Assembly: GCA_016867315.1 (NCBI GenBank)
Contig: VGJV01000001.1
Span: 194,649-258,648, forward strand
Origin: Candidatus Liptonbacteria bacterium
GTDB taxonomy: Bacteria > Patescibacteriota > Minisyncoccia > UBA6257 > 2-01-FULL-56-20
DNA length: 64,000 bases
Reading direction: 5' to 3'
Below the pieces are notes generated by a model. It did no database searches and was not told the DNA's origin. It saw only the letters and a program-made list of their open reading frames with translations. This document shows positions 1 through 61,993 of the stretch, piece by piece; position 1 is the first letter of the stretch; the number at the start of each line of letters is the position of its first letter. A program made the translations under genes and the position numbers.

Positions 1-590
1 TTTCGACCACTACGCATAAGACTCTTCGGGGACCTCGAGGAGCGATCATTATGTGCAAAGAGAAATTTGCGAAAGATATTGACCGAGCGGTATTCCCGGG
101 TGTTCAAGGAGGCCCGCATGATCACATCAACGCCGCCAAGGCAGTGGCCTTCGGAGAGGCGCTTAAGCCGGAATTTGTGCAATATGCCCAGCAGGTCATT
201 GCGAACGCTAGGGGCTTCGCGGCGGCGCTCATGAAGCGGGGATATCGGGTAATTTCGGGAGGCACAGACAACCACATCGTGCTCATCGATATGTTTGGCA
301 GCAAACAAATTACCGGTAAAGAAGCCGAACATGCTTTGGAACAGGTGAATATTTCCATTAATAAAAATATGATTCCGTACGATCCTCGAAAGCCCCTCGA
401 CCCTTCGGGAGTGCGCTTGGGAACTCCGGCAATAACTACGCGGGGGCTTAAAGAAAGTGACATGGAGACTGTGGCGGGATTCATTGACGAAACGCTTATC
501 AATCGAACGGACGAGGCGAAGCTCACCAGCATTCGTTCGCGCGTGACTCAGTTCGCGAGACAGTTTCCTGTGCCGGGGATAACGGCATAG
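1..590 (+). CDS. glyA: serine hydroxymethyltransferase, C-terminal portion (5' end lies upstream of window)
   Basis: Translation carries SHMT hallmark stretches '[28 protein letters not shown]' and '[15 protein letters not shown]'; reading frame stays open to the window edge. Confidence 0.85.
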
Positions 591-599
591 AATTTAGAA

Positions 600-1346
600 A
601 TTAGAACGTAGAAGAGGCGACGCTCACGATACTTTCACGCTTTTCTTCAAATACTGTAGGGATGTTCCTTGAGAAGTAAATTTGTGACGGTTGGATATCG
701 CGGAAACCCGAAACTCACGTTGCAAGCAAGGATCAAATAACCATACAGAACAGAGGAGGAGTATTATGTTGACTGCAACCGCAACTGCGCCGAGGGGTGT
801 CAATTCTGTTCGAGAGTCTCTCGACAACCCTACGTTAGAACACGTGCGAAGTTTCCCATTTAGGATGACCCATGGTTTTTCTCTTGATCGTTGTCCGCGA
901 TCCGGTTTTTTGCGATGGCATCCGGATTTGCACGACGCTAACTTTCCTGGCAGTGCTACGCATTGGGGGAAGACCTATGGCGCCGAAGTATATCGTCTGA
1001 AGGACGAGCTTACGCTGGAGATGCTCCTTCGTATGGCTATGGAGGGAGGACGGTTGTCTTTGGGAGCATGGACAAGCGCAAGGCTTTGCAGCCAATGTCG
1101 CGAACATCTTCCCAAGGATAACTGGGCAGTATGCGTAGGGGAAGAACACGAGCGAGGGACTCCGGGGTTCATATGGGTTCAGGAGGGAACGGGAGGTTGG
1201 GGACTCGCGCTTTTCAAATGGCGTGCTTCTTGGGCAAGGGGAGCTTACGCGATATTCTTTCACGAGCTTTAGGGAAGGAGGAAGGCTAGCCAAAGGGAAG
1301 CCCTCGGCGCGGGGATCATGCGTCGAGGGCGAATTTTATTTTTATT
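600..1346 (+). other. GC-rich non-coding block with mutually overlapping junk ORFs on both strands; candidate large structured RNA or long 3' region, closed by an intrinsic terminator
   Basis: ORFs 691..1272(+) and 835..1293(-) overlap each other and encode W/R/C-rich low-complexity peptides. Local GC is higher than in the neighbours. A stable hairpin plus T-run ends the block at 1300-1346. Confidence 0.25.
1300..1346 (+). terminator. rho-independent terminator (GCCCTCG...CGAGGGC stem then GAATTTTATTTTTATT)
   Basis: 7-bp GC stem with structured loop followed by a U-rich tract, 25 nt upstream of the folD start. Confidence 0.55.
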
Positions 1347-1370
1347 ACGAAGGAAGATATACTTCCCCCA

Positions 1371-2219
1371 TTGCGCATGGCTCAAATTCTTGATGGGAAA
1401 AAGATAGCTGGGGAGGTCCTTGTCCGGCTTAAGTCCAGACCAGTTCCAAAGCAGTTTTTCGCAGGAGTACTTATAGGCGATGATCCGGCCTCCGAAAGTT
1501 TTCAAAAACTCAAACAGGGGGTGGCACGGGAGCTCGGGATTGATTATGGGATCTCTAAACTTTCTCCGGAGCTGGGGGATGAAGGACTTCGCGAGGAGGT
1601 AGGACGGATGGCTGAGGAGAAGAATTGTGGAGGCGTGATTGTACAACTTCCTTTACCCGAAGGACTCAATCCGCATTATATTGTGAATGCGATTCCGGCG
1701 GAGAAAGATCCGGATGTGTTGGGAGAGCGAGCATTGGGAGCTTTTTATAATGGGAGCGGGGTTGCTGTCCATCCGGCGGCAGCTACGGTGTGGGAAATTT
1801 TGAAACAGACGAATTTCAACCTGGAGGGAAAAAAAGTAGCCATTGTGGGGCCGGGGACTCTTATTGGGAAGCCGGTGGCGGTATCGCTTTTAGGGAAGGT
1901 GAGTAATCTCTATGTTTTGGGAAGGGGGTCGGATATGAGTTTACTTAAAAATTGCGATCTTGTGATTTTGGGAGTAGGAAAGGCGGGACTTGTGACTCCC
2001 GATATGCTCAAAGAAGGAGTCGGAGTAATTGACTTTGGATACAGTCCCGGAGAAAAGTTGGGAGTGAATGGGAAACCGTTACTTCGTGGGGATTTTGATT
2101 CATCGGATGCAGCTCTTTGCGATGCGCGATTGGCGTTCTATACTCCTACGCCCGGAGGAACGGGGCCGATTCTTGTTTCCAAACTTTTTGAGAATTTTTA
2201 CGCCTTGAATTCGGAATAG
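1371..2219 (+). CDS. folD: bifunctional methylenetetrahydrofolate dehydrogenase/cyclohydrolase (ATG probably at 1377)
   Basis: Classic FolD C-terminal motif 'YTPTPGGTGPILVSKLFENF' and typical length. The track ORF begins with TTG at 1371, and an in-frame ATG at 1377 gives MAQILDGKK. Confidence 0.9.
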   Translation: MRMAQILDGKKIAGEVLVRLKSRPVPKQFFAGVLIGDDPASESFQKLKQGVARELGIDYGISKLSPELGDEGLREEVGRMAEEKNCGGVIVQLPLPEGLNPHYIVNAIPAEKDPDVLGERALGAFYNGSGVAVHPAAATVWEILKQTNFNLEGKKVAIVGPGTLIGKPVAVSLLGKVSNLYVLGRGSDMSLLKNCDLVILGVGKAGLVTPDMLKEGVGVIDFGYSPGEKLGVNGKPLLRGDFDSSDAALCDARLAFYTPTPGGTGPILVSKLFENFYALNSE

Positions 2220-2221
2220 TA

Positions 2222-3223
2222 ATGCAGCGAAAGAAATCCTCTCCTCTTTTAGGGAAAGTTTTGAAAAAGATCGCTCCAAAAATCGGAGCGCGAGTCATTT
2301 TAGAGCCTCGATGGAACATCGTGGGGCAAATTATTTTTAAGCGCGGACGAAAGCGATATTTCAGGTATTCCAGCTTGGATTTAAATCCGCTCGGGGCTTC
2401 GGAAATCTCGAACGATAAAGACTACGCGAATTTTTTTATGAAACGATTGGGGTATCCTACGGTACCGGGCGAAGCTTTTTTCTCTCCTCAATGGGCGGAA
2501 GCGATCGGTTCCCGCCGCACTTTTCAGGCTGCGTATCGCTATGCGCGGAAGTTAGGGTTCCCCGTGGTTGTGAAGCCCAACAGCGGTAGCCAAGGGCGAG
2601 GAGTGACGCTGGTATATAACAAGAAAGAATTTTATTCTGCGTTACGTGAGATATTTTTGAGAGATAGAGTGGTCTTAGTCCAAAAGCCCGTTTTGGGAAA
2701 TGATTATCGGGTGGTGGTTCTCAATGATAAGGTAATTTCTGCATACCAGCGTATTCCTTTGAATGTCATAGGTGATGGAGTGTGCACTATCCGACAATTA
2801 CTTTTGGTAAAACAGCGCAGTTTCGAAGCCTCGAGTCGTGATACCCAACTCAAACTTAATGACCAGCGCATTTCTAAAAAGCTTGCTCGTCAGCGTTTAT
2901 TTATGCGATCCATTCCTGCTAAAGGGAGACAAGTTTTTCTTTTAGACAATGCGAACCTTTCTACGGGAGGAGATTCAATCGATGTTACTCGGGAGATCCA
3001 TCCTGATTTTAAAAAGATCGCTGTCGCTCTTACTAAAGACATGGGACTTCGGCTTTGTGGGGTGGATCTTATGGTGCGGGGAGACATCCGTCAGCTGCCT
3101 GCTACTTATTGGATTCTTGAAATAAACGCAGCTCCAGGACTCGATCATTATGCAAAGAGTGGAAAAGCACAGGAAAAAATAGTAGAAGATCTCTACTTGC
3201 AGGTTCTTAAAAGTATGGAGTGA
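2222..3223 (+). CDS. ATP-grasp ligase, cyanophycin-synthetase G-domain-like / RimK-CofF-like
   Basis: Motifs 'PVVVKPNSGSQGRGVT', 'GNDYRVVVLNDKVISAYQRIPLNVIGDGVCTIRQLL' and 'DNANLSTGGDSIDVTREIHP' resemble the ATP-grasp domain of CphA/RimK-type amino-acid ligases (recalled family signatures). Confidence 0.6.
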   Translation: MQRKKSSPLLGKVLKKIAPKIGARVILEPRWNIVGQIIFKRGRKRYFRYSSLDLNPLGASEISNDKDYANFFMKRLGYPTVPGEAFFSPQWAEAIGSRRTFQAAYRYARKLGFPVVVKPNSGSQGRGVTLVYNKKEFYSALREIFLRDRVVLVQKPVLGNDYRVVVLNDKVISAYQRIPLNVIGDGVCTIRQLLLVKQRSFEASSRDTQLKLNDQRISKKLARQRLFMRSIPAKGRQVFLLDNANLSTGGDSIDVTREIHPDFKKIAVALTKDMGLRLCGVDLMVRGDIRQLPATYWILEINAAPGLDHYAKSGKAQEKIVEDLYLQVLKSME

Positions 3224-3225
3224 TG

Positions 3226-3936
3226 TTACTCCCTCTTTTTTCTTAATCGTGAAAAAAGAGGTTTATACATGTCCTCCTGGATGTTTATGGAACATTCCCG
3301 GCGATTTACTTTCTCGGCGAATTTTACCGGTGCATTTTGGATGAGTGCGAGAGGCTTTTTTTCATTCCCTTCCCCCATTGTTAATACTGCGGCGGTAGCT
3401 AAGCCATCCGCTATATTTGTCTGAGCAAATCTAAATCTTCTTCCAAAAATGTCTTTTGTGCCGCGGTAATCTTTAAGGCCTCGGAATCCGGCGTACCCGA
3501 GGGCCACTCCGGTAACGCCGAGTCGAAGGGGGATTGTGCGGCTATCGGTGATGAGTACCCCCCAATTTTTTATTTTGTAGCATCTTCGGAGCGCATCTCG
3601 AAGACGGCGGGCGGTTTTAAAGCTATCTTTGGGAAGCAAGATAAGCTTGCCGTTCGCGTTCGATTCATCTATTCCCGCTGAAGCCATCATCATTCCATCT
3701 TTTATTGTGAGCCATACGTGTTTAGTACGGATGGCCATTTCACTTTCTTTCCGAATGAGATCAGGTTTAGTTCTGGAATTTTTTATGGGCGCGGTTCGAT
3801 TTTCGGAGAGCGCCACAATTTTAGAAGTTACTACGAGTACCGAGTTTTCGGGGATTTTCTTTATATATTTTTTTATAAACGCGAGAAGGTTTTCGCCTTC
3901 TTTAAATATGTGAGTTTTTATTGGGTTTATGTGCAT
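3226..3936 (-). CDS. CofE-like protein (F420-0:gamma-glutamyl ligase family)
   Basis: N-terminal 'VLVVTSKIVALSENR' and 'ASAGIDESNANGKLILLPKD', plus a Gly-rich C-terminal region 'GVTGVALGYAGFRGLKDYRG', match my recollection of CofE/FbiB-N family motifs. Convergent with the ATP-grasp gene with a 2-nt gap. Confidence 0.45.
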   Translation of the reverse strand: MHINPIKTHIFKEGENLLAFIKKYIKKIPENSVLVVTSKIVALSENRTAPIKNSRTKPDLIRKESEMAIRTKHVWLTIKDGMMMASAGIDESNANGKLILLPKDSFKTARRLRDALRRCYKIKNWGVLITDSRTIPLRLGVTGVALGYAGFRGLKDYRGTKDIFGRRFRFAQTNIADGLATAAVLTMGEGNEKKPLALIQNAPVKFAEKVNRRECSINIQEDMYKPLFSRLRKKRE

Positions 3937-3981
3937 GAAAATGTGGAGGGCAACGATTGTTTTCCTGCCCTCCGTTGTACC

Positions 3982-4617
3982 TTATTTTTTGTTTCTCATC
4001 CATTTTTTTTCGATGAGATAGAGAATATCATCCGAGGTTTCTATTTCGAGATGTGAAGGAACGGTATACGTGAGGAGGGTTGTGCCTCGCGGTACCAAGC
4101 GACGGGCCGTGGAAAAGGGATACTTCGCGAAAAAATCATTCCGCGGCATTTCCTGTGCTCCTACTCTGTACCCGGCATGGATTACTGTGTTTCGATTTGT
4201 CATCAGGCCGACGTGTCCAATGAGAAGATTTCCCGCAGGGCGGCTTGAGAAAAGCCCCTCAGTGAAGACTATATCTTCTTCGCCCAGTTCGCTCTCCGCG
4301 ATGCCTTCTCCATACTCGAGCCATCGTAGAAAATCTTTTGGGAGCCATATTCCCCGAATTGCATACAGGTATTTGATGAAGGTGATGCAGTTCAAAATGT
4401 GGGGAGCATTGCTGAAATCTGTTTCTCGTGCATATTGCACTTTCCCGATTAAATGCCGCGCTTCGCCGAGGAGATTTACCTCAATGCGATGTAGGCCGGA
4501 ATTTCTGAGGATGCTTAGCGCATCCAGGTAGGGAATGTTAAGATTCGTGGAGTTTAGGTTTACCGCGCAGCGTCTTTCAGCGGATTGAGGCAATTGAGTG
4601 GCAATGAGATATTTCAC
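3982..4617 (-). CDS. hypothetical protein, co-oriented directly upstream of the CofE-like gene
   Basis: 211-aa ORF with plausible globular composition and no motif I can assign confidently. The antisense ORF 4070..4531 is judged spurious. Confidence 0.4.
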   Translation of the reverse strand: MKYLIATQLPQSAERRCAVNLNSTNLNIPYLDALSILRNSGLHRIEVNLLGEARHLIGKVQYARETDFSNAPHILNCITFIKYLYAIRGIWLPKDFLRWLEYGEGIAESELGEEDIVFTEGLFSSRPAGNLLIGHVGLMTNRNTVIHAGYRVGAQEMPRNDFFAKYPFSTARRLVPRGTTLLTYTVPSHLEIETSDDILYLIEKKWMRNKK

Positions 4618-4643
4618 AAGTTTCCTTTCTTTGTGGTTATGAA

Positions 4644-4675
4644 GAACAAAATTAAAACCGCCTCAGAAAGGCGGC
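4644..4675 (-). terminator. hairpin CCGCCTcagaaaGGCGG with T-run on the minus strand
   Basis: On the minus strand the sequence reads GCCGCCTTTCTGAGGCGG followed by TTTTTAATTTT, downstream of tRNA-Val and the EEP gene. Confidence 0.4.
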
Positions 4676-4780
4676 TCAATTAGAAATCAATGAGAGCCGC
4701 CTCTTACGTCGAGGTGTGCCTTGCAAAGCTAGACCAGGTGGAGCGAAAGCGAGTAATAAGCATGGGATTATTGTATCATG

Positions 4781-4852
4781 TGCGCCCTGTAGGATTTGAA
4801 CCTACGACCTATCGCGTGTAAAGCGACCGCTCTGCCGCTGAGCTAAGGGCGC
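4781..4852 (-). tRNA. tRNA-Val (anticodon TAC)
   Basis: The reverse complement folds as a cloverleaf: acceptor GCGCCCT/AGGGCGC, D-stem GCTC/GAGC, anticodon stem GTCGC/GCGAT with loop TTTACAC, T-arm GTAGG-TTCAAAT-CCTAC, discriminator A. Confidence 0.85.
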
Positions 4853-4879
4853 ATGCTGAATTGCGCATGCCGCCTCATA

Positions 4880-5692
4880 TTAATGGAATTCTAGTATAAG
4901 AGGCAAGTGGTCTGAAATTTCCACGTTTGGTACCTCGAATCGTTCCACGGCAACATCGTGGGATACTAAAATGTAATCTACTACTGCATCGAAATCCTTT
5001 TTGTTGAAATGCTTGGAAAGTCGACTCCTGGTGCGCTCAATCGAAAATTCTTCCACGAGATTGCGCATGTGTTCGGCCAGTAGTGCGAAGCTTTGCGTGT
5101 CGGGACGGAGGTTAAAGTCTCCGCAAATAATTTTAGGCTCTTTTTCTCCCTTGAGAAATTCAAGCACTTTCTCTGATTGAAGGAGCCGATCGGGGGTATC
5201 TCGATGGCCGAGAAAGTGCGGTTCTTTATGAAGTTTTGCCAGGGTCTCCGGAGGGTGGGCCAAGCCATGGAGGTTCGATATGGAGAAGGTTTTGGGGCCC
5301 ATGGCGATTCTCGTGCAGAGGAGCACGGAAGGTATTGTTTTGGTGTCTACCGCGCCATTGCGCTCGCGGTAAACGAAGGTTTCTTCGGTGGAGAGTACCT
5401 GAATGGACTTTCTTACAAACGTAGCCTGTCCGGCGGAGATATCAAAATCTACTTTGCCCTCGAAATCCCACCCATCTTGTTCGGCGGCGAAAAAACCTTC
5501 GAATTCAGGAAGAATTTGGGAAAATTCTCCAAACATATTCGTGCGGATGCCTCGACTCTCTGTCGCGTCCGAATTCGAGCGAAACATTTCCTGAAACAAA
5601 AAAAGATCCGTCGTCGGAGTTTCTTGCTTTATAAATTCGAGAAGCGGCTCGTAACACTTGCCGCCGAAGGTGTTTAGGGTAATAAGTCTCAT
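4880..5692 (-). CDS. endonuclease/exonuclease/phosphatase (EEP) family hydrolase
   Basis: C-terminal catalytic motif 'SDHLPLILEF' and an internal 'ICGDFNLRPDT' are typical of the EEP fold. Confidence 0.8.
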   Translation of the reverse strand: MRLITLNTFGGKCYEPLLEFIKQETPTTDLFLFQEMFRSNSDATESRGIRTNMFGEFSQILPEFEGFFAAEQDGWDFEGKVDFDISAGQATFVRKSIQVLSTEETFVYRERNGAVDTKTIPSVLLCTRIAMGPKTFSISNLHGLAHPPETLAKLHKEPHFLGHRDTPDRLLQSEKVLEFLKGEKEPKIICGDFNLRPDTQSFALLAEHMRNLVEEFSIERTRSRLSKHFNKKDFDAVVDYILVSHDVAVERFEVPNVEISDHLPLILEFH

Positions 5693-5781
5693 CCTGTTAG
5701 AAGCCGTGGTCGCACCGCAATAAAAAAGTTACACGAGGCATTTATTTTGAAGTAGAAACTGCGACCTGCTTCTCACGGGAC

Positions 5782-6183
5782 TCATTGAGTTTGTTCCCAT
5801 TTGGCTACGGCTGGATGAAAATCCACTTGATGCTCGGGGATTCCAAGTGCAATGCCATATTGTTTGGCTGCATCATATTCCGCTTGGCTTTTTCGATCAA
5901 CAAAGAAAACTTTATCACGAAATACTATGTAGTGATGGGTGGAATTTCTGAAATCGGCATACCATGCGTTATGCGTGTGATCGATTGACTGGCTGATTTT
6001 TTTCACACATTCTGCTGCGTGGGATTCAGGAATGAGCACTTCATGGAGCGTCCATTGTGAAACCCAGGGTGTTTTATGTTTGTCGGTGACTTGGCTTACT
6101 CGCGTACTTAAAATTTGCACTTCTTTGAGAATTGCTTTGTTCTCGAGAGATTCCTCGATTATCACGCCGCGGTAATCGGACAT
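5782..6183 (-). CDS. hypothetical protein
   Basis: 133-aa ORF with balanced composition and no assignable motif. Confidence 0.45.
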   Translation of the reverse strand: MSDYRGVIIEESLENKAILKEVQILSTRVSQVTDKHKTPWVSQWTLHEVLIPESHAAECVKKISQSIDHTHNAWYADFRNSTHHYIVFRDKVFFVDRKSQAEYDAAKQYGIALGIPEHQVDFHPAVAKWEQTQ

Positions 6184-6254
6184 AGTTATATTTTGCCCCG
6201 CCTTTGGCGGGACACAAGAGACTCTAACTCACTTCGTTCGAAGATTCTCTAGTG

Positions 6255-6325
6255 TCGGGCCGCCGAGATTTGAACTCGGACTAAATCTTCCCAAAAGACT
6301 CGTGCTGCCGTTACACTACGGCCCG
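6255..6325 (-). tRNA. tRNA-Pro (anticodon TGG)
   Basis: Reverse complement: acceptor CGGGCCG/CGGCCCG, D-stem GTGT/GCAC, anticodon stem AGTCT/AGATT with loop TTTGGGA, T-arm CCGAG-TTCAAAT-CTCGG, discriminator A. Confidence 0.8.
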
Positions 6326-6370
6326 TTGCCCTTCAAATTACGCTACTTTTCGGCTAGAATCAATGCGCTT

Positions 6371-6442
6371 GTCCTCGTAGTTCAACGGATAGAACTCCTG
6401 CCTTCTAAGCAGGTAATCGAGGTTCGATTCCTCGCGAGGACA
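6371..6442 (+). tRNA. tRNA-Arg (anticodon TCT)
   Basis: Acceptor GTCCTCG/CGAGGAC, D-stem GTTC/GAAC, anticodon stem CCTGC/GCAGG with loop CTTCTAA, T-arm CGAGG-TTCGATT-CCTCG, discriminator A. Confidence 0.85.
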
Positions 6443-6515
6443 CCGAGATTCTTAGGAAGTTAGGGGTCTATTGAAGGATTAATAAAAAATGTGTAAGCTG
6501 GGACTGCTATCGTAA

Positions 6516-6782
6516 GCCGCGGTAGCTCAGTGGCAGAGCATTCGCCTGAACTCTTCGGGCACCGATTCAGTAATGAGTCGGTAAAAACTGGGTGAATTCG
6601 GGGGAACTTCGCAAGAACAATCCCGAGCCAAGCTCCAAACTTGGAGAAGGTGTAGAGACTATCCCTTCGGGGAGTACTCTGAAAAATCAGAGGAAGCGCC
6701 CAGCTCCGCGCAAGCGGATGATGATATAGTCCAACTTCGCAGGAAGAGCGATTGGTCGTCAGTTCGATTCTGACCCGCGGCA
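6516..6782 (+). tRNA. tRNA-Phe (anticodon GAA) interrupted in the anticodon loop by a ~195-nt group I intron
   Basis: Exon 1 (6516-~6547): GCCGCGG-TA-GCTC-AGTGGCA-GAGC-A-TTCGC-CT. Exon 2 (~6743-6782): GAAGA-GCGAT-TGGTC-GTCAG-TTCGATT-CTGAC-CCGCGGC-A. Spliced anticodon loop is CTGAAGA. Acceptor, D, anticodon and T stems all pair. Confidence 0.7.
6548..6742 (+). ncRNA. group I self-splicing intron within tRNA-Phe
   Basis: Core elements are present: P-like GTGAATTCGGGGGAAC (6591-6607), Q-like AATCCCGAGCC (6619-6629), R 'GTAGAGACTA' (6652-6661) and S 'GATATAGTCC' (6723-6732) forming P7. The internal guide GGGC (6557-6560) pairs with exon GCCT, giving a U.G at the proposed 5' splice site. The candidate omega-G is at 6742. 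Exact exon boundaries are uncertain by a few nt. Confidence 0.65.
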
Positions 6783-6859
6783 CATTATATAAAGCAAAAC
6801 ACCTCCCCCGGGAGGTGTTTTGCTTTCCAGACTACTTGCTACCCGCTACGTGCTACTCG

Positions 6860-7957
6860 CTACTTCTTCAGTTTAAGCATTATCCGCTTTTCTTCCGGCT
6901 TCACGGCCTCTACCACGAATTTCTGCATGTCTCCTACGGGAAGTTTAGCTTTCATGGCATCTGCAGATTCGAATTCAGCGATGTGCACGGTGCCTTGAAT
7001 GCCCTGGCCCAAGTCGATAATCGCACCGAAGGGATTCAATTTATAAATTTTTCCTTCCACTTCTTCTCCTTTCTTGTAACGGTCGCCCAAAGTCGTCCAT
7101 GGGTCTTGCTGGAGCGCTTTCAAAGAGAGGAACACGCGGCCATCTTCGCGGATATCGATGATTTTTACTTTCACTGTTTCATCTACTTTAAGCACTTCTT
7201 TCGGATTATCTACTATATAGTGCGCGAGTTCGGAGATGTGGATCAGCCCTTCGAGCTGCGGTTCATCGACGAACCGGACGAATGCACCGAAGTCGGCGAT
7301 CCCCGTTACCAATCCCTGAATTTCGTCGCCCGCTTTGTATTTCTTCAAAAGTTCTTTTACGTTCCCGCTTACTACTTCACGTTCGGAAATAATGAACTTA
7401 TTGTGGCGCGGGTTTACGTCGATCACCTTTACCGTGAGCTCCTCGCCGATGAATTTCTTGAGTTCGTCAAATATTTTCTGGCGGTCGCCGTCTTCCACGC
7501 GCGGATAGTGCTCCTGAGAGAGTTGGGAGACAGGCAAAAAAGCTTTGAGATCGAGCAGGGTCGCGGTAAGGCCGCCGGCGTTCGCTCCTACAATTTTTAC
7601 TTTCACTAATTCTCCGGATTCCATGAGTTCTTTGGCTTGCTGCCAGAGCCGTTCTTTGCCGGCTTCGGCGAGGGAAAGCTCGATGTAGCCGTCTTCGGAT
7701 TCCAGGGTTTTGATTTTCGCGAGCACGGTGCCCCCGGGCTGAAGCTCTTTTACAATTTCTTTCGCATTCAAGAGTTCCACTCCCCATACGATACCCGTTC
7801 CGAATTTCCCTAAATCAAAAAACACCTTCCGGTCAGTTTTCCGGAGGAGTTTTACTTCCACCACGCTTCCTTCTTTAGGCCATTCGCCCGAAGGTATGGC
7901 CGCTTTCAAAGCGTCCAAGAGGGTGGTTTGCGAACTCTTTACTGAGGCATCTGCCAT
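6860..7957 (-). CDS. rpsA: 30S ribosomal protein S1 (four S1 domains)
   Basis: Repeated S1-domain signatures (for example 'GTVHIAEFE', 'GLIHISELA', 'GTGIVWGVEL'); 365 aa. The ORF 6752..7609(+) on the opposite strand is spurious. Confidence 0.85.
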   Translation of the reverse strand: MADASVKSSQTTLLDALKAAIPSGEWPKEGSVVEVKLLRKTDRKVFFDLGKFGTGIVWGVELLNAKEIVKELQPGGTVLAKIKTLESEDGYIELSLAEAGKERLWQQAKELMESGELVKVKIVGANAGGLTATLLDLKAFLPVSQLSQEHYPRVEDGDRQKIFDELKKFIGEELTVKVIDVNPRHNKFIISEREVVSGNVKELLKKYKAGDEIQGLVTGIADFGAFVRFVDEPQLEGLIHISELAHYIVDNPKEVLKVDETVKVKIIDIREDGRVFLSLKALQQDPWTTLGDRYKKGEEVEGKIYKLNPFGAIIDLGQGIQGTVHIAEFESADAMKAKLPVGDMQKFVVEAVKPEEKRIMLKLKK

Positions 7958-7989
7958 ACGTCCCCCGATTATAAAGATATTGAAAATAA

Positions 7990-8610
7990 ATGCAAATACG
8001 GCTGGAAATGCCCTTCGATCCTTGGTACAATGCCCCCGTGGTTATTACCTATTTAGGCGAAGGCTCATTCCGCCTCCAAAGCGGAGAAATTTCAATATTA
8101 ATAGACCCTACTTCGAATCGATTCAAGGGGGATTTGGTCTTGCGTACCGAAGCGGAATTTCCAAAGTCCGAGGCGGCGCCCGGGGCGCAAACGGAGATTT
8201 TGCATGCGGGAGAATTCGAATCCAAGGGTATTGAAGTGCAGGGAATTGTCTTAGGAGCGGATCATAAAGAGGGGAAAACGCACACGGGATACCTTGTGCG
8301 ATGGGAGGATCTTACTTTTGCATTTTTGGGGCCGCTCGCTCGGGTGCTTGATCCGGAGCTTTTGGAAAAATTTGACGATCCGGATGTGCTTTTTTTGCGG
8401 CTCGGGGCACGGTATCTCACTGAAGAAGCGGCGGAAAAAGTGGTCCGGCAAATTGAGCCCAAAGTGGTAATCCCGGCGTATGAAAAGTCTCCGCAAGCGT
8501 TTCTTAAAGAAATGGGAGAAGCGGGAGCGCTTGAGGAAAAGTTTGTGTTCCGCAAAAAGGATTTAGAGGCGATCGAGGGGACTAAAACAATCGCGCTCAA
8601 GGCGGCATAG
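7990..8610 (+). CDS. metallo-beta-lactamase-fold hydrolase-like protein
   Basis: N-terminal 'VVITYLGEGSFRLQSGEISILIDP' resembles the MBL-fold strand-1 signature; 206 aa. Assignment is tentative. Confidence 0.45.
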   Translation: MQIRLEMPFDPWYNAPVVITYLGEGSFRLQSGEISILIDPTSNRFKGDLVLRTEAEFPKSEAAPGAQTEILHAGEFESKGIEVQGIVLGADHKEGKTHTGYLVRWEDLTFAFLGPLARVLDPELLEKFDDPDVLFLRLGARYLTEEAAEKVVRQIEPKVVIPAYEKSPQAFLKEMGEAGALEEKFVFRKKDLEAIEGTKTIALKAA

Positions 8611-8613
8611 TAT

Positions 8614-8646
8614 ACAGCAAGTAGCAGGTAGCATGTAGCAAGTAGT
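8614..8646. repeat. short tandem repeat array (GTAGCA/AGCAAG units) upstream of small gene 8653..8964
   Basis: AGCAAGTAGCAGGTAGCATGTAGCAAGTAG. Confidence 0.5.
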
Positions 8647-8652
8647 ATAAAT

Positions 8653-8964
8653 ATGAACACCGACTTTTTAAAAAAGATTCAAGAAGCGGATCACGCGACG
8701 AAGAAGCAGGTGCTTTTTATTGCATCGGCTGTCGCGATGCTTCTTGTGGTTCTTGTCTGGTTGCTCTATTTTAATAATCTTGTAGCTTCCACGGCGGCAG
8801 AAATCTCTCCGCTTGCCGCAGAGGAGCCGCAAGAAGATCGTTCCTTTTGGGGAACGATGCATCGTGGGACCGCCGTGCTTTACGGGAATATAAAAGGAGG
8901 AGTTGAATGGTTGGGGCAGGCATTGCAGGCTCCTCGCGAATATATAGTGAAGCCTCCTCAGTAG
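8653..8964 (+). CDS. small single-TM membrane protein, hypothetical
   Basis: 103 aa with hydrophobic segment 'VLFIASAVAMLLVVLVWLLYF', flanked on both sides by TAGCA-type tandem repeats. Confidence 0.4.
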   Translation: MNTDFLKKIQEADHATKKQVLFIASAVAMLLVVLVWLLYFNNLVASTAAEISPLAAEEPQEDRSFWGTMHRGTAVLYGNIKGGVEWLGQALQAPREYIVKPPQ

Positions 8965-8996
8965 CTACATAGCAAAGAGCGAATAGCATATAGCGA
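8961..8996. repeat. short tandem repeat array (TAGCA-type) downstream of the small gene
   Basis: GTAGCTACATAGCAAAGAGCGAATAGCATATAGCGA. Confidence 0.5.
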
Positions 8997-9007
8997 AACC
9001 AAAATTT

Positions 9008-11452
9008 ATGTCGAACGTAGAAAAAAGAGAAATAACTAACGAATTAAGCGAGTCCTATCTCGACTATGCAATGTCGGTGATCGTGGCGCGTGCCCTTCCG
9101 GACGTGAGGGACGGATTGAAGCCTGTGCATCGTCGTGTGCTTTGGACAATGTGGTCCATTGGGCTCACGCATCTCGCGAAATTTAGGAAGTCGGCGAATG
9201 TGGTGGGAGAGACCATGGCCAAATACCATCCGCACGGAGATGTGGCGATTTACGACACCTTGGTGCGTATGGCCCAGGATTTCTCGCTCCGATACCCCTT
9301 GGTCAAAGGCCAAGGAAACTTCGGGTCGGTGGACGGCGATGCGGCCGCCGCTATGAGGTATACCGAATCTCGGCTTTCGAAGATCGCGGAGGAACTCCTG
9401 CTCGATATCGAAAAGGAAACGGTGGATTGGGCGCCGAACTACGATGCGACTCGGGAAGAACCAAAAGTATTTCCCGCCAAACTCCCGAACCTCCTGGTGA
9501 ACGGCACATTGGGAATCGCGGTTGGAATGGCGACGAGTATTCCGCCGCACAACCTGACCGAAGTGCTCGATGCCACGCTTCTGCTTGCCGATAAGCCTTC
9601 GGCGACGACTGAGGAACTTCTGGAGTTCGTCAAAGGCCCGGACTTTCCCACGGGAGGAGTGATGTACGACCGCGCCGCGATTCGCCAAGCCTATTCTACG
9701 GGTCGCGGGTCGGTCACGACGCGGGCCAAAGCGGAAGTCGTGGATCGGAAGAAGTCCGGCGAGAGCGGGCGTGGAGGACAAGATATCGTGATCACCGAAA
9801 TTCCCTATCAAGTGAACAAGTCGGAGTTAGTGAAGCAGATTGCGATACTTGTTACCGATAAAAAGGTAGAGGGCATCCGCGACCTTCGCGATGAATCCGG
9901 CCGGGAGGGGATGCGGATCGTGGTGGAGCTCAAAAACGATGCCGCGCCTCAGAAAGTGCTCAATCAACTTTATCGTCACTCCGATCTTCAGAAAGATTTT
10001 CACTTTAATATGATCGCGCTCCGCGACGGGATTCAGCCCGAACTTTTCTCTTTGAAAGAGATGCTTATGGCGTATCTTGAGCACCGCAAAGAAGTGGTAC
10101 GCCGGAGGACGCAATTTGATTTGAAACGAGCCGAAGAGCGGGCGCACATTTTGGAAGGGCTCGCGACAGCGCTCGACTCCATTGATAAGGTGATCTCGAC
10201 GATCCGGAAATCTAAGGACCGCGAAGATGCGCACGCGAATTTGATGAAACTTTTCAAACTTACGGATGTGCAGGCGACGGCAATTTTGGAAATGAAGCTG
10301 CAAACTTTGGCGGCGCTCGAACGGCAGAAGATCGAAGCCGAACTCAAAGAAAAGCGCGCGCTTATCAAAGAACTGAATCTTATCTTGAAGAGTCCGGCAC
10401 GAATTATGGGGGTGATCAAAGACGAGCTCAAAGACCTCAAAGAAAAGTATGGCGATCGGCGCCGCACGCAGGTGGTGGCCTCAGCCTTGAAGGCTATGAC
10501 CGATGAAGACCTCGTGCCTGAAGAGGATGCGATCGTGACTTTCTCTTCGAGCGGCTATGTGAAGCGCGTACCGCCGGATTCCTTCCGGATGCAGCGGCGT
10601 GGAGGCAAGGGGCTTATCGGGTCGGATGTCGCCGAAGAAGATTTTCTTTCCCATTTCTTCCACGCGAATACGCACGATAAAATTTTATTCTTTACCGATC
10701 GCGGGCGGGTATTCGAGACGCGGGCATATGAAATTCCCGCAGCGAGCCGGACGGCCAAAGGCAAAGCGATTCACAATTTCCTCGAGCTTCCCACGGATGA
10801 GAATATCAGCGCGATTGTGAATCTTCCTGCTAAAAGCTTAAAGCTTAACGCTCAAAGCTATTTATTTATGACCACTAAAGACGGGATGGTCAAGAAAACG
10901 CCTCTCAAAGATTTTGAAAATATTCGGCGCACCGGCATCATCGCCATCTCTTTGAAGAAAGGGGACATGCTCAAATGGGTGCGAGCTTCCACCGGGAACG
11001 ATCAAGTGATTCTGGTGACGGAACAAGGTCAATCCATTCGGTTTGCCGAATCTCAAGTGCGATCTATGGGGCGTGGCGCGGCAGGGGTGCGCGGGATTCG
11101 ATTGCGCAGCGGAGACTCGGTGGCGGGGTGTGACTTGGTGAAGAAGGGAGATACGGCACAACTTTTGGTCGTGATGGCAAACGGTTTTGGGAAACGCACG
11201 CCGCTCAAGGAATATAAAGTGCAGGGCCGCGGCGGATCGGGAATCAAGACGGCAAATGTGACGACCAAGACCGGGAAAGTGGTGGCGTCGCTCGTGATTG
11301 GAGAAGAGACTGAGCTTTTGGCACTTTCTGCTAAGGGGCAAGTGATTCGGACGGATTTAGGAAGTGTGCGTCAGACCGGCCGGTCTGCGCAGGGGGTGCG
11401 CATTATGAATATGAACCAGGGAGATAGGGTGGCGGGATTGGTGGTGATTTAG
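9008..11452 (+). CDS. gyrA: DNA gyrase subunit A
   Basis: N-terminal '[27 protein letters not shown]', an active-site tyrosine region, the GyrA-box 'QRRGGKG' and six C-terminal beta-pinwheel repeats; 814 aa. Confidence 0.95.
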
Positions 11453-60811: not shown

Positions 60812-60883
60812 GTCCCCATAGCTCAACGGATAGAGCGTATCCCTGCGGAGGATAAGATAGAGGTTCAATTCCTCTTGGGGACA
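60812..60883 (+). tRNA. tRNA-Arg (anticodon read as GCG)
   Basis: Acceptor GTCCCCA/TGGGGAC, D-stem GCTC/GAGC, anticodon stem TATCC/GGATA with loop CTGCGGA, T-arm AGAGG-TTCAATT-CCTCT, discriminator A. Confidence 0.7.
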
Positions 60884-60886
60884 CAG

Positions 60887-61225: not shown

Positions 61226-61915
61226 TTGGGTTATAATGTCCTAGTGGACACAGGTTCGGATCTTTCGGAACGTATACTTTCTCTTAGGAGAAATCGAAAA
61301 AGCTATAACGAAATAGCTCAAGCTCTTGGCATTTCTAAAAGCACTGTTTCTTATTGGCTTGCAGAGAATCCTGAATCTAAAAAAATAAAGAGTTTCCTTA
61401 TGGCTGAAAATAGGGAAAGGAGTCGCTATAGGATTCAAAAGGTTATCCAATCTTCTCGAGAGAAATGGGAAAAGGTTCGAGAATTAGGGAGAAAGGAAGC
61501 TCATAATTCTTTCAATACGTTTTTGGAGAACCCTATCTTTCTTGTGGGACTTTCGTTCTATTGGGGGGAAGGAGATAGTAAGCCTAAAAACCCTTTGCGA
61601 ATTTCCAATACCGATCCTCGAATGGTACATTTATACATCCGTTTTCTAAAAGAGATTCTTTCTATTTCATCAGATAAAATAAAACTTGGACTTATTCTTT
61701 ACCCGGACATTTCCGAGGTGAGCGCAAGAGAATTTTGGTTAAGAGCTACGGGTTTGGATCAGAATAATTTTTTTAAAACTCAATATATTCGCGGTCGGCA
61801 TCCTACTAAAAGACTTTCTCAGGGGATTTGTATGATAGTAACAAGGAGTATTAAGGAAAAAGCCAAAGTTTTGGAGTGGATTGATATTTTCTATAATCAA
61901 TTTAGAATGGTTTAG
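61226..61915 (+). CDS. HTH-domain protein with possible LAGLIDADG-like motif (homing-endonuclease-like), wedged between two tRNA genes
   Basis: N-terminal HTH 'SYNEIAQALGISKSTVSYWL' and central 'IFLVGLSFYWGEGDSKPKN', reminiscent of LAGLIDADG 'LAGFxDGDGS'. Ends 3 nt before tRNA-Gly. Confidence 0.35.
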   Translation: MGYNVLVDTGSDLSERILSLRRNRKSYNEIAQALGISKSTVSYWLAENPESKKIKSFLMAENRERSRYRIQKVIQSSREKWEKVRELGRKEAHNSFNTFLENPIFLVGLSFYWGEGDSKPKNPLRISNTDPRMVHLYIRFLKEILSISSDKIKLGLILYPDISEVSAREFWLRATGLDQNNFFKTQYIRGRHPTKRLSQGICMIVTRSIKEKAKVLEWIDIFYNQFRMV

Positions 61916-61918
61916 CCT

Positions 61919-61989
61919 GCGGGATTCGTATAGTGGCAGTACATTACCTTGCCAAGGTAAAGGCGCGAGTTCGATTCTCGTATCCCGCT
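61919..61989 (+). tRNA. tRNA-Gly (anticodon GCC)
   Basis: Acceptor GCGGGAT/ATCCCGC, D-stem GTAT/GTAC (with G.U), anticodon stem TTACC/GGTAA with loop TTGCCAA, T-arm, discriminator U. Confidence 0.8.
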
Positions 61990-61993
61990 CTAG

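Follow-up and report, generated by a model that had tools for sequence, protein, structure and literature searches.

Is the interrupted transfer RNA (tRNA) gene on a Candidatus Liptonbacteria contig a working tRNA-Phe(GAA) gene that carries a group I intron, or the remains of one? The stretch under study (hereafter the window, meaning the whole 64,000 nucleotides (nt) analysed, positions 194,649 to 258,648 of contig VGJV01000001.1) comes from a freshwater metagenome contig, and a preliminary description made from its letters had placed a group I intron, some 195 nt long, within the anticodon loop of this tRNA at window positions 6516–6782. On this point the covariance model, the reconstruction of the exons, the covariation among homologs and the existence of intron-less alleles with exactly the expected junction all agree. 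Judged from these sequence comparisons, the locus very probably holds a real and functional group I intron of the class named Phe.2Ug, inserted between U33 and G34 of a chromosomal tRNA-Phe(GAA) of the Patescibacteria (also known as CPR, candidate phyla radiation).

A split tRNA-Phe(GAA) gene and its uninterrupted alleles

When ARAGORN was run on the intact window with its intron option (-i), it returned tRNA-Phe(gaa) i(34,195) on the forward strand at 6516–6782, the same coordinates as had been proposed from the letters. The intron follows directly after U33. Exon 1 (6516–6547, 32 nt, forward strand like all parts of the gene and intron described below) comprises the 5' strand of the acceptor stem, the D arm, the 5' strand of the anticodon stem (UUCGC, 6541–6545), C32 and U33, and it is supported by the spliced and unspliced ARAGORN calls and by intron-less homologs. 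Exon 2 (6743–6782, 40 nt) starts with GAAGA and comprises the anticodon GAA (6743–6745), G37, A38, the 3' strand of the anticodon stem (GCGAU), the variable loop, the T arm, the 3' strand of the acceptor stem and A73; the CCA end is not encoded. The joined exons form a clean 72-nt tRNA-Phe(GAA) cloverleaf, so that the claim that they rebuild a tRNA-Phe holds; the ARAGORN call on them extends to 73 bases by adding the next C. Neither ARAGORN with default settings nor the Rfam tRNA model detects the gene.

The intron itself spans 6548–6742 (195 nt), ends with a G and has no open reading frame (ORF); the evidence for it comes from the Rfam group I model, the ARAGORN call and at least 51 homologous tRNA-Phe introns. 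Because both borders of the intron carry GAA and a G, several alternative cuts would yield an identical product, and the borders were set by the group I rule that a U precedes the 5' splice site and that a G is the last base of the intron. The G in question, G6742, had been put forward as a candidate omega-G, and the junction that it defines is matched by independent contigs. The ligated 24-nt junction AGCATTCGCCTGAAGAGCGATTGG, which is absent from the window itself, is found uninterrupted in 31 metagenome contigs. The tRNA-Phe genes on these contigs are uninterrupted, with one possible exception (L159, in which the 5' half has no match), and in seven of them the intron-less tRNA is identical to the joined exons at 71 of 72 positions. 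Moreover, two of the contigs (L153 and L173) bear their intron-less tRNA-Phe at an rpsA-gyrA locus that is syntenic with window positions 1–11450 (gyrA, the S1 protein gene and the tRNA cluster) at 64–75% DNA identity. Orthologous loci thus encode the predicted spliced tRNA without the intron, which is the strongest available support for the junction short of RNA data.

It is also evident that alleles with and without the intron occur on the same tRNA backgrounds. On the T stem GUCAG/CUGAC the intron is present in the window and absent from L161 and others, and on the T stem GGGGG/CCCUC it is present in L053 and absent from L157. The presence of both alleles in close relatives, on two T-stem backgrounds, implies from these sequences that gain or loss of the intron happened repeatedly. 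An assembly artefact was ruled out as the origin of the split gene, because the same 267-nt pre-tRNA is present in three further assemblies (two Logan runs and a second JGI sample).

Fold and conservation of the intron

In a search of the 64 kilobases (kb), window positions 6538–6753 matched the Rfam model Intron_gpI (RF00028) over its full length (1–253) with E = 5e-10. The preliminary description had named this model as a check, and the group I fold was not rejected by it; the match scores 50.9 bits, just over the gathering score of 50. The features of membership in RF00028 that were found are a U.G-bearing P1 with its guide, the omega-G, P10, a P3–P8 core and a bulged A within P7. The fold was taken from the covariance-model alignment together with the comparative data, and its helices were verified base by base. 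A free-energy fold of the 267-nt precursor recovered P1, P2, P3 and P8; it mis-folded P4–P6 and P7.1/P7.2, P7 could not be drawn in it, and it was set aside.

P1 (6544–6560) joins GCCU, the final four bases of exon 1 (6544–6547), and the adjoining intron bases GAA (together 6544–6550) to UUCGGGC (6554–6560) with seven of seven pairs, around a CUC loop (6551–6553). Its wobble pair at the 5' splice site is U6547.G6557, as had been read from the GCCU and GGGC strands. The P10 guide CUCUUC (6551–6556) can form six of six pairs with GAAGAG (6743–6748), with which exon 2 begins, and the UUC within it pairs with the GAA anticodon. P2 (6562–6581) has 8 base pairs (bp), all formed, and a GUAA tetraloop (6570–6573). 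The 5' strand of P3 (CUGGGUG, 6588–6594) makes seven of seven pairs with its 3' strand (CGCCCAG, 6697–6703). P4 (6598–6626; UCGGGG at 6598–6603 with UCCCGA at 6621–6626) represents the P and Q elements and encloses a minimal P5 of 3 bp (6608–6610 with 6615–6617) closed by a GCAA loop. P6 (6627–6629 with 6649–6651) and P6a (6633–6637 with 6642–6646) follow at 6627–6651.

The R and S elements lie where the preliminary description had put them. R (GTAGAGACTA, 6652–6661) provides the 5' strand of P7, with G6655, the bulged A6656 and GACUA (6657–6661), and pairs with 6727–6732; within P7, G6657–C6731 is presumed by analogy to be the guanosine-binding pair. S (GATATAGTCC, 6723–6732) lies with J8/7 in 6719–6732 (UGAUGAUA followed by UAGUCC), and this segment supplies the 3' strand of P7 that pairs with R. 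An insert of 35 nt (6662–6696) parts P7 from the 3' strand of P3 and carries two hairpins within 6662–6692, namely P7.1 (6662–6665 with 6670–6673, UUCG loop) and P7.2 (6677–6682 with 6687–6692). P8 (6705–6718) has 5 bp and a GCAA loop, so that GNRA loops cap L2, L5 and L8 of this intron. After P7 there remains only a 3' tail of 10 nt (AACUUCGCAG, 6733–6742), which has no P9 hairpin and ends with the omega-G.

Relatives were collected by scanning species-representative genomes with a core pattern modelled on the window intron, and the counts that follow are lower bounds. At least 119 loci match the pattern, and intron-aware ARAGORN places 102 of the matches listed, the window included, in split tRNA genes. 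The commonest host among the matches listed is tRNA-Phe(GAA) (at least 52 calls including the window), followed by tRNA-Asn(GUU) (at least 17) and tRNA-Thr(UGU) (at least 14), although these proportions are biased towards introns of the window type because the pattern was derived from the window intron. There are at least 51 distinct tRNA-Phe introns besides that of the window, all at the same insertion site and mostly in metagenome-assembled genomes (MAGs) of Patescibacteria; the taxa among the matches listed are Parcubacteria/Paceibacterota, Saccharibacteria, Doudnabacteria, Magasanikbacteria, Uhrbacteria and Gracilibacteria. In every one of the 52 Phe(GAA) calls listed, the window included, the intron follows the second base of the anticodon loop, is preceded by a U and ends with the omega-G. 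Introns in tRNA-Phe of the Patescibacteria type were also met in seven MAGs labelled 'uncultured Gammaproteobacteria' (L038, L040, L067, L086, L131, L144 and L150), labels that look doubtful.

The 52 distinct Phe introns, including that of the window, were aligned and their consensus was derived with RNAalifold; it is to this set that the following counts refer. Double changes that keep the pair were found in 29 of 42 consensus pairs, in P2, the outer pairs of P3, P5, P6a and P7.1. In P2, 15–30 sequences are changed on both sides at all seven predicted pairs, and its loop is G.AA in all 52 introns; in P6a, 10–33 sequences are changed on both sides at all six pairs. The outer two pairs of P3 switch between UA/CG and CG/UA among the homologs, and P4 is almost invariant, with compensatory changes in P5. 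R and S are invariant in all 52, as the scan pattern itself demanded of both. All 52 introns have a U.G-bearing P1 of 6–9 bp, whose guide covaries with the exon (GCCU/GGGC, GCCCU/GGGGC, GGACU/GGUCC and GGUCU/GGACC), and 50 of them have a potential P10 of 4–6 bp. A hairpin of 3–8 bp occupies the P8 position in all 52 and is built from 39 different 5' strands, and the insert between P7 and the 3' strand of P3 forms in most Phe homologs a single covarying hairpin with a conserved loop. The covariation, the P1 guide that tracks the exon and a P8 rebuilt from 39 strands indicate that the fold is under selection across the Phe family.

The near-minimal size attributed to the intron is a fair description. 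No Phe intron among the matches listed is shorter than its 195 nt, the others ranging from 202 to 260 nt, and it lies 10 nt below the 205-nt intron of Azoarcus. Its closest relatives among the matches listed (L053, L108 and L115) are 202–203 nt long and come from MAGs, one of them labelled Patescibacteria; compared with these, the trimming lies in a shorter L6 (by 5–6 nt) and in L7.2.

The 3' tail and the proposed course of splicing

How might the 3' splice site be presented by an intron that ends only 10 nt after P7? The tail contains UUCGC (6736–6740), a copy of the 5' strand of the anticodon stem, which can pair with GCGAU (6748–6752; tRNA positions 39–43), and the Rfam alignment places this hairpin of tail and exon in its last helix. 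Among the 24 Phe introns listed with short tails (8–15 nt), 22 have a complement to positions 39–43 at four or five of five bases, in 21 cases sited 2–4 nt before the omega-G. The complement tracks the stem type of the tRNA (GACGC, UCGCC, CAGCC and UUCGC), and often the tail is unlike the exon strand and yet paired through G.U (UAGCU or UGGCC against GGCUG). The mean score of the tail complements is 4.3, compared with 3.05 in shuffled tails, and none of 5000 shuffles was as good.

The remaining 28 Phe introns listed have tails of 27–35 nt, nearly all with a GNRA-looped P9 hairpin as judged by eye. Their host tRNAs mostly have A37 (loop CUGAAAA), with G37 in seven. The short-tail introns that lack P9, to which the window intron belongs, sit in G37 tRNAs (loop CUGAAGA); G37 is unusual in bacterial tRNA-Phe. 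The mimicry of the exon by the tail was rejected as a general trait, since the Thr.2Ug, Asn.4Ug and Leu.3Ug introns and the A37-type Phe introns have an ordinary P9. From the pattern of these sequences, it is plausible that tail-exon pairing is a substitute for P9 that is specific to this subclass. A fuller version of this idea, which we offer tentatively and regard as somewhat less probable than its negation, is that the short-tail introns represent a group I ribozyme that naturally does without P9, in which the tail mimics the 5' strand of the anticodon stem, pairs with positions 39–43 and shows the 3' splice site in a look-alike of the anticodon stem-loop, where GAA is read by the UUC of the guide.

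Set on this anatomy, the established chemistry of group I introns would give the following course. The tRNA-Phe gene would be transcribed, probably together with the upstream tRNA-Arg(UCU) gene. The tail may then pair with the 3' strand of the anticodon stem and free the real 5' strand for P1, since P1 needs G30 and C31 of that stem. Exon bases G30–U33 would form P1 with the guide GGGC, including the U33.G wobble, and a free guanosine held at the G6657–C6731 pair of P7 would attack 3' of U33. The guide CUCUUC would next pair with GAAGAG of exon 2, the anticodon included, to form P10; the 3' splice site might be shown in the stem-loop look-alike formed by the tail, and the omega-G (G6742) would occupy the guanosine site. 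Ligation of the exons would yield the mature tRNA-Phe, in which the true anticodon stem could re-form.

Several points weigh against a functional, unaided intron or against the role proposed for its tail. The Rfam score exceeds the gathering score by a margin of 0.9 bit, and with a P5 of 3 bp and no contact between L9 and P5 the RNA may be too unstable for unaided splicing at physiological magnesium. In the literature we found no splicing experiment for any Phe.2Ug intron. Within the 64 kb of the window, ARAGORN finds no further tRNA-Phe. As for the tail, the helix that it would form with the exon has only 4 bp in the window, with a mismatched U.U at 27–43 as in the tRNA itself; the helix is absent in 2 of the 24 short-tail relatives; and a permutation across eight stem types gives p ~0.035, which is weak because few stem types are independent.

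Some of these points could mean that the RNA is a true group I intron that has lost its stabilising periphery and depends on a protein or chaperone for folding and splicing. We judge this alternative to unaided splicing rather improbable. It would suit an intron that is shorter than the other 51 Phe introns listed, with its 3-bp P5, no P9 or L9, and an L6 and L7.2 trimmed relative to the nearest relatives, and protein-assisted splicing of group I introns is well known, for example with CYT-18 (PMC3984707). However, the GNRA loops on L2, L5 and L8 and the helices P7.1/P7.2 have been kept, no candidate cofactor gene adjoins the tRNA-Phe gene, and the Azoarcus intron, at 205 nt, splices efficiently unaided (PMC13168695).

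The low margin of the Rfam score, barely at its threshold, and the missing P9 would also be expected of a decayed relic that no longer splices, in which case the locus would be a tRNA-Phe pseudogene. We consider this very unlikely. The window intron retains intact all those core elements that do not vary across the 52 members of the Phe family, and its differences from close relatives are paired changes: P6a reads CUCCA/UGGAG in the window and CCCCA/UGGGG in the relatives of 202–203 nt, P7.2 is changed on both strands relative to L053, L108 and L115 with the pairing kept, and the T stem of the tRNA shows paired changes as well. Furthermore, the identical sequence occurs in four assemblies, and no other tRNA-Phe is found in the window. 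The locus is best read as a probably functional, intron-bearing tRNA-Phe gene.

Known relatives, mobility and significance

Introns of this kind have been met before. A survey that mapped 5292 split tRNA genes and raised the number of known classes from 4 to 21 found an intron frequency in metagenomic assemblies of unnamed phyla second only to that of cyanobacteria, and its seed alignment includes Mba55.Phe.2Ug (Williams 2020, bioRxiv 10.1101/2020.01.27.920355); group I introns in some CPR tRNAs were also reported by Lui et al. 2021 (PMC8172020). The Phe.2Ug class of Williams 2020 shares with the window intron the tRNA-Phe host, the site after U33, the preceding U and the omega-G. Between Mba55.Phe.2Ug and the window intron, 154 positions are identical (77% of the shorter sequence); both contain the core strings AAACUGGGUGAAUUCGGGG, AAUCCCGAGCC, GGUGUAGAGACUA, AAGCGCCCAG and GAUAGUCC, an insert between P7 and the 3' strand of P3, and a short 3' tail. 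The window intron is about 40 nt shorter, with a shorter P5, P6 and P8, and bears two small hairpins after P7, whereas Mba55.Phe.2Ug has one with a conserved UGAGUCCCAACAAUAA loop. The class is known from computation only. Because Phe.2Ug had already been listed in that survey, the novelty that the preliminary description saw in a tRNA-Phe host is weakened, and Phe is in fact the commonest host among the matches listed.

The Azoarcus sp. BH72 tRNA-Ile(CAU) intron (subgroup IC3, 205 nt) resembles the window intron in its place in an anticodon loop, its size of about 200 nt, its lack of an ORF and its GNRA tetraloops, and the two share a P3–P8 core (GAGCCAAGC...GAAGGUGUAGAGACUA...AUAGUCC). In Azoarcus, however, the 3' strand of P3 comes directly after P7, a true P9 hairpin with a GAAA loop is present, P5 is longer, and both the tRNA and the position in the loop are different; the window intron carries P7.1/P7.2 and lacks P9, its tail can pair with exon 2, and the global alignment of the two is poor outside the core. 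The tRNA-Leu(UAA) intron of cyanobacteria and plastids (as in Anabaena; IC3) is likewise a group I intron of the anticodon loop and differs from the window intron in host, insertion site (U34/A35) and subgroup. To judge from the title of Zaug, McEvoy & Cech 1993 as cited in PMC3984707, its splicing was reported to depend on pairing of the anticodon stem, which would make the stem of the tRNA a participant in the reaction. In tRNA-Leu(UAA) it is exon that pairs with exon, whereas in the window the tail of the intron is proposed to replace the 5' strand.

Introns of subgroup IC3 have a P9 hairpin, and in them the 3' strand of P3 lies directly after P7, without intervening P7.1/P7.2. With a 35-nt insert between P7 and the 3' strand of P3, and only 10 nt without a hairpin after P7, the window intron was rejected as a member of IC3. 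Extra P7.1/P7.2 helices between P7 and the 3' strand of P3 are reportedly a trait of subgroup IA. The IA introns of phages (such as T4 td and Twort) have extra helices at this point as well; they differ from the window intron in that they interrupt protein-coding genes, exceed it in size and in many cases encode an endonuclease. The window intron combines its P7.1/P7.2 hairpins with a core that otherwise looks nearer to that of the IC3 tRNA introns. P7.1/P7.2 are among the features used in classifying group I introns (PMC3984707), and Williams 2020 (bioRxiv 10.1101/2020.01.27.920355) places the classical bacterial tRNA introns in IC3, with the 3' strand of P3 directly after P7 in the alignment of the four classes so listed.

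Is the intron mobile? The preliminary description had drawn attention to a gene resembling a homing endonuclease elsewhere in the window, and an intron that homes actively by means of this ORF could explain why alleles with and without it occur in near-identical tRNAs on two T-stem backgrounds; ORFs are also suggested in related introns on viral contigs. The window intron has no ORF, however, and none of the 52 Phe introns listed (195–260 nt) has room for one. The ORF (61226–61915, forward strand, 229 amino acids) lies 55 kb from the intron, between tRNA-Arg(GCG) (60812–60884) and tRNA-Gly(GCC) (61919–61990). Its family matches in Pfam, PHROGs and NCBIfam are to helix-turn-helix (HTH) domains only, over the first ~50 residues. 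A confident structure model (pLDDT, the predicted local distance difference test, of 93.2) has a conserved C-terminal alpha/beta domain, and it gave no match in the PDB at E <= 0.001, no LAGLIDADG fold and no nuclease among the best fold matches. Those of its 79 homologs that bear an annotation are described as HTH, regulator-like or hypothetical proteins; the homologs apparently all belong to genomes of the Patescibacteria type, the few that bear an organism name being Patescibacteria. A homing endonuclease at this position was thus rejected by three family libraries, the sequence search of the PDB, the homolog search and the structure model with its fold search. The ORF lends no support to mobile-intron biology, and homing driven by it is the least probable of the alternatives considered, with hardly any likelihood left to it.

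Related introns elsewhere are of some interest in their own right. A window-type intron core with a tRNA T arm was seen on 25 IMG/VR viral contigs (L007–L031; e.g., L007:6522–6650 and L014:924–1061). Intron-aware ARAGORN called 10 split tRNA genes on these contigs (Thr, Asn, Gln, Arg and a dubious Phe), and on several others coding-like sequence runs up to the intron core, which suggests intron ORFs; according to a 2014 review, all phage introns known by then lay in protein-coding genes (PMC3984707). Six tRNA-Asn(GUU) introns of the same family (L050, L084, L087, L103, L113 and L145) measure 543–580 nt compared with the usual ~220 and have room for a small ORF. Core-pattern matches without a split-tRNA call (L033, L034, L035, L037, L045, L046, L075, L106, L117, L136 and L141) come from Staphylococcus canis, Neobacillus niacini, several Lewinellaceae/Saprospiraceae and other Bacteroidota MAGs and a Helicobacteraceae MAG, and one lies in a MAG labelled Methanosarcinaceae (archaeal; possibly mis-binned).

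Next to the split gene, tRNA-Arg(UCU) lies 71 nt upstream of tRNA-Phe (6371–6444, forward strand). Because a promoter-like site precedes it at 6332–6360, the sequence makes it likely that the two tRNAs are co-transcribed. Directly 3' of tRNA-Phe, between the convergent tRNA-Phe and S1-protein (rpsA-like) genes, a perfect hairpin of ~16 bp (AAAGCAAAACACCUCC...GGAGGUGUUUUGCUUU; 6791–6826, with no strand assigned) was read from the sequence and is probably a two-way terminator. A simple terminator scan missed it, and its Rfam matches are weak and only to terminator hairpins of other families.

Introns of this kind in tRNA-Phe are common in Patescibacteria and already reported, so that the find is sound and, apart from its size, mostly ordinary; the general picture of group I introns is unchanged by it. 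What interest remains lies in the minimal size and in the P9-less tail that can pair with the exon. With 195 nt, no P9 and a minimal P5, the intron is a candidate for a model ribozyme smaller than that of Azoarcus, and its close relatives of 202–203 nt reveal which loops were trimmed. If the P9-less reading is true, no smaller self-splicing group I intron from nature would be at hand, and the tail would represent a previously undescribed means by which the 3' splice site is chosen and by which the intron settles the competition between P1 and the anticodon stem. The alleles of near-identical tRNAs with and without the intron offer a natural system in which to follow how an intron without an ORF is gained and lost. 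Moreover, because default tRNA finders miss the gene, such genomes would score as lacking tRNA-Phe, which bears on estimates of completeness and on claims of missing functions for the small genomes of Patescibacteria. If this is the sole tRNA-Phe gene of the organism, all protein synthesis in the cell would depend on this ribozyme.

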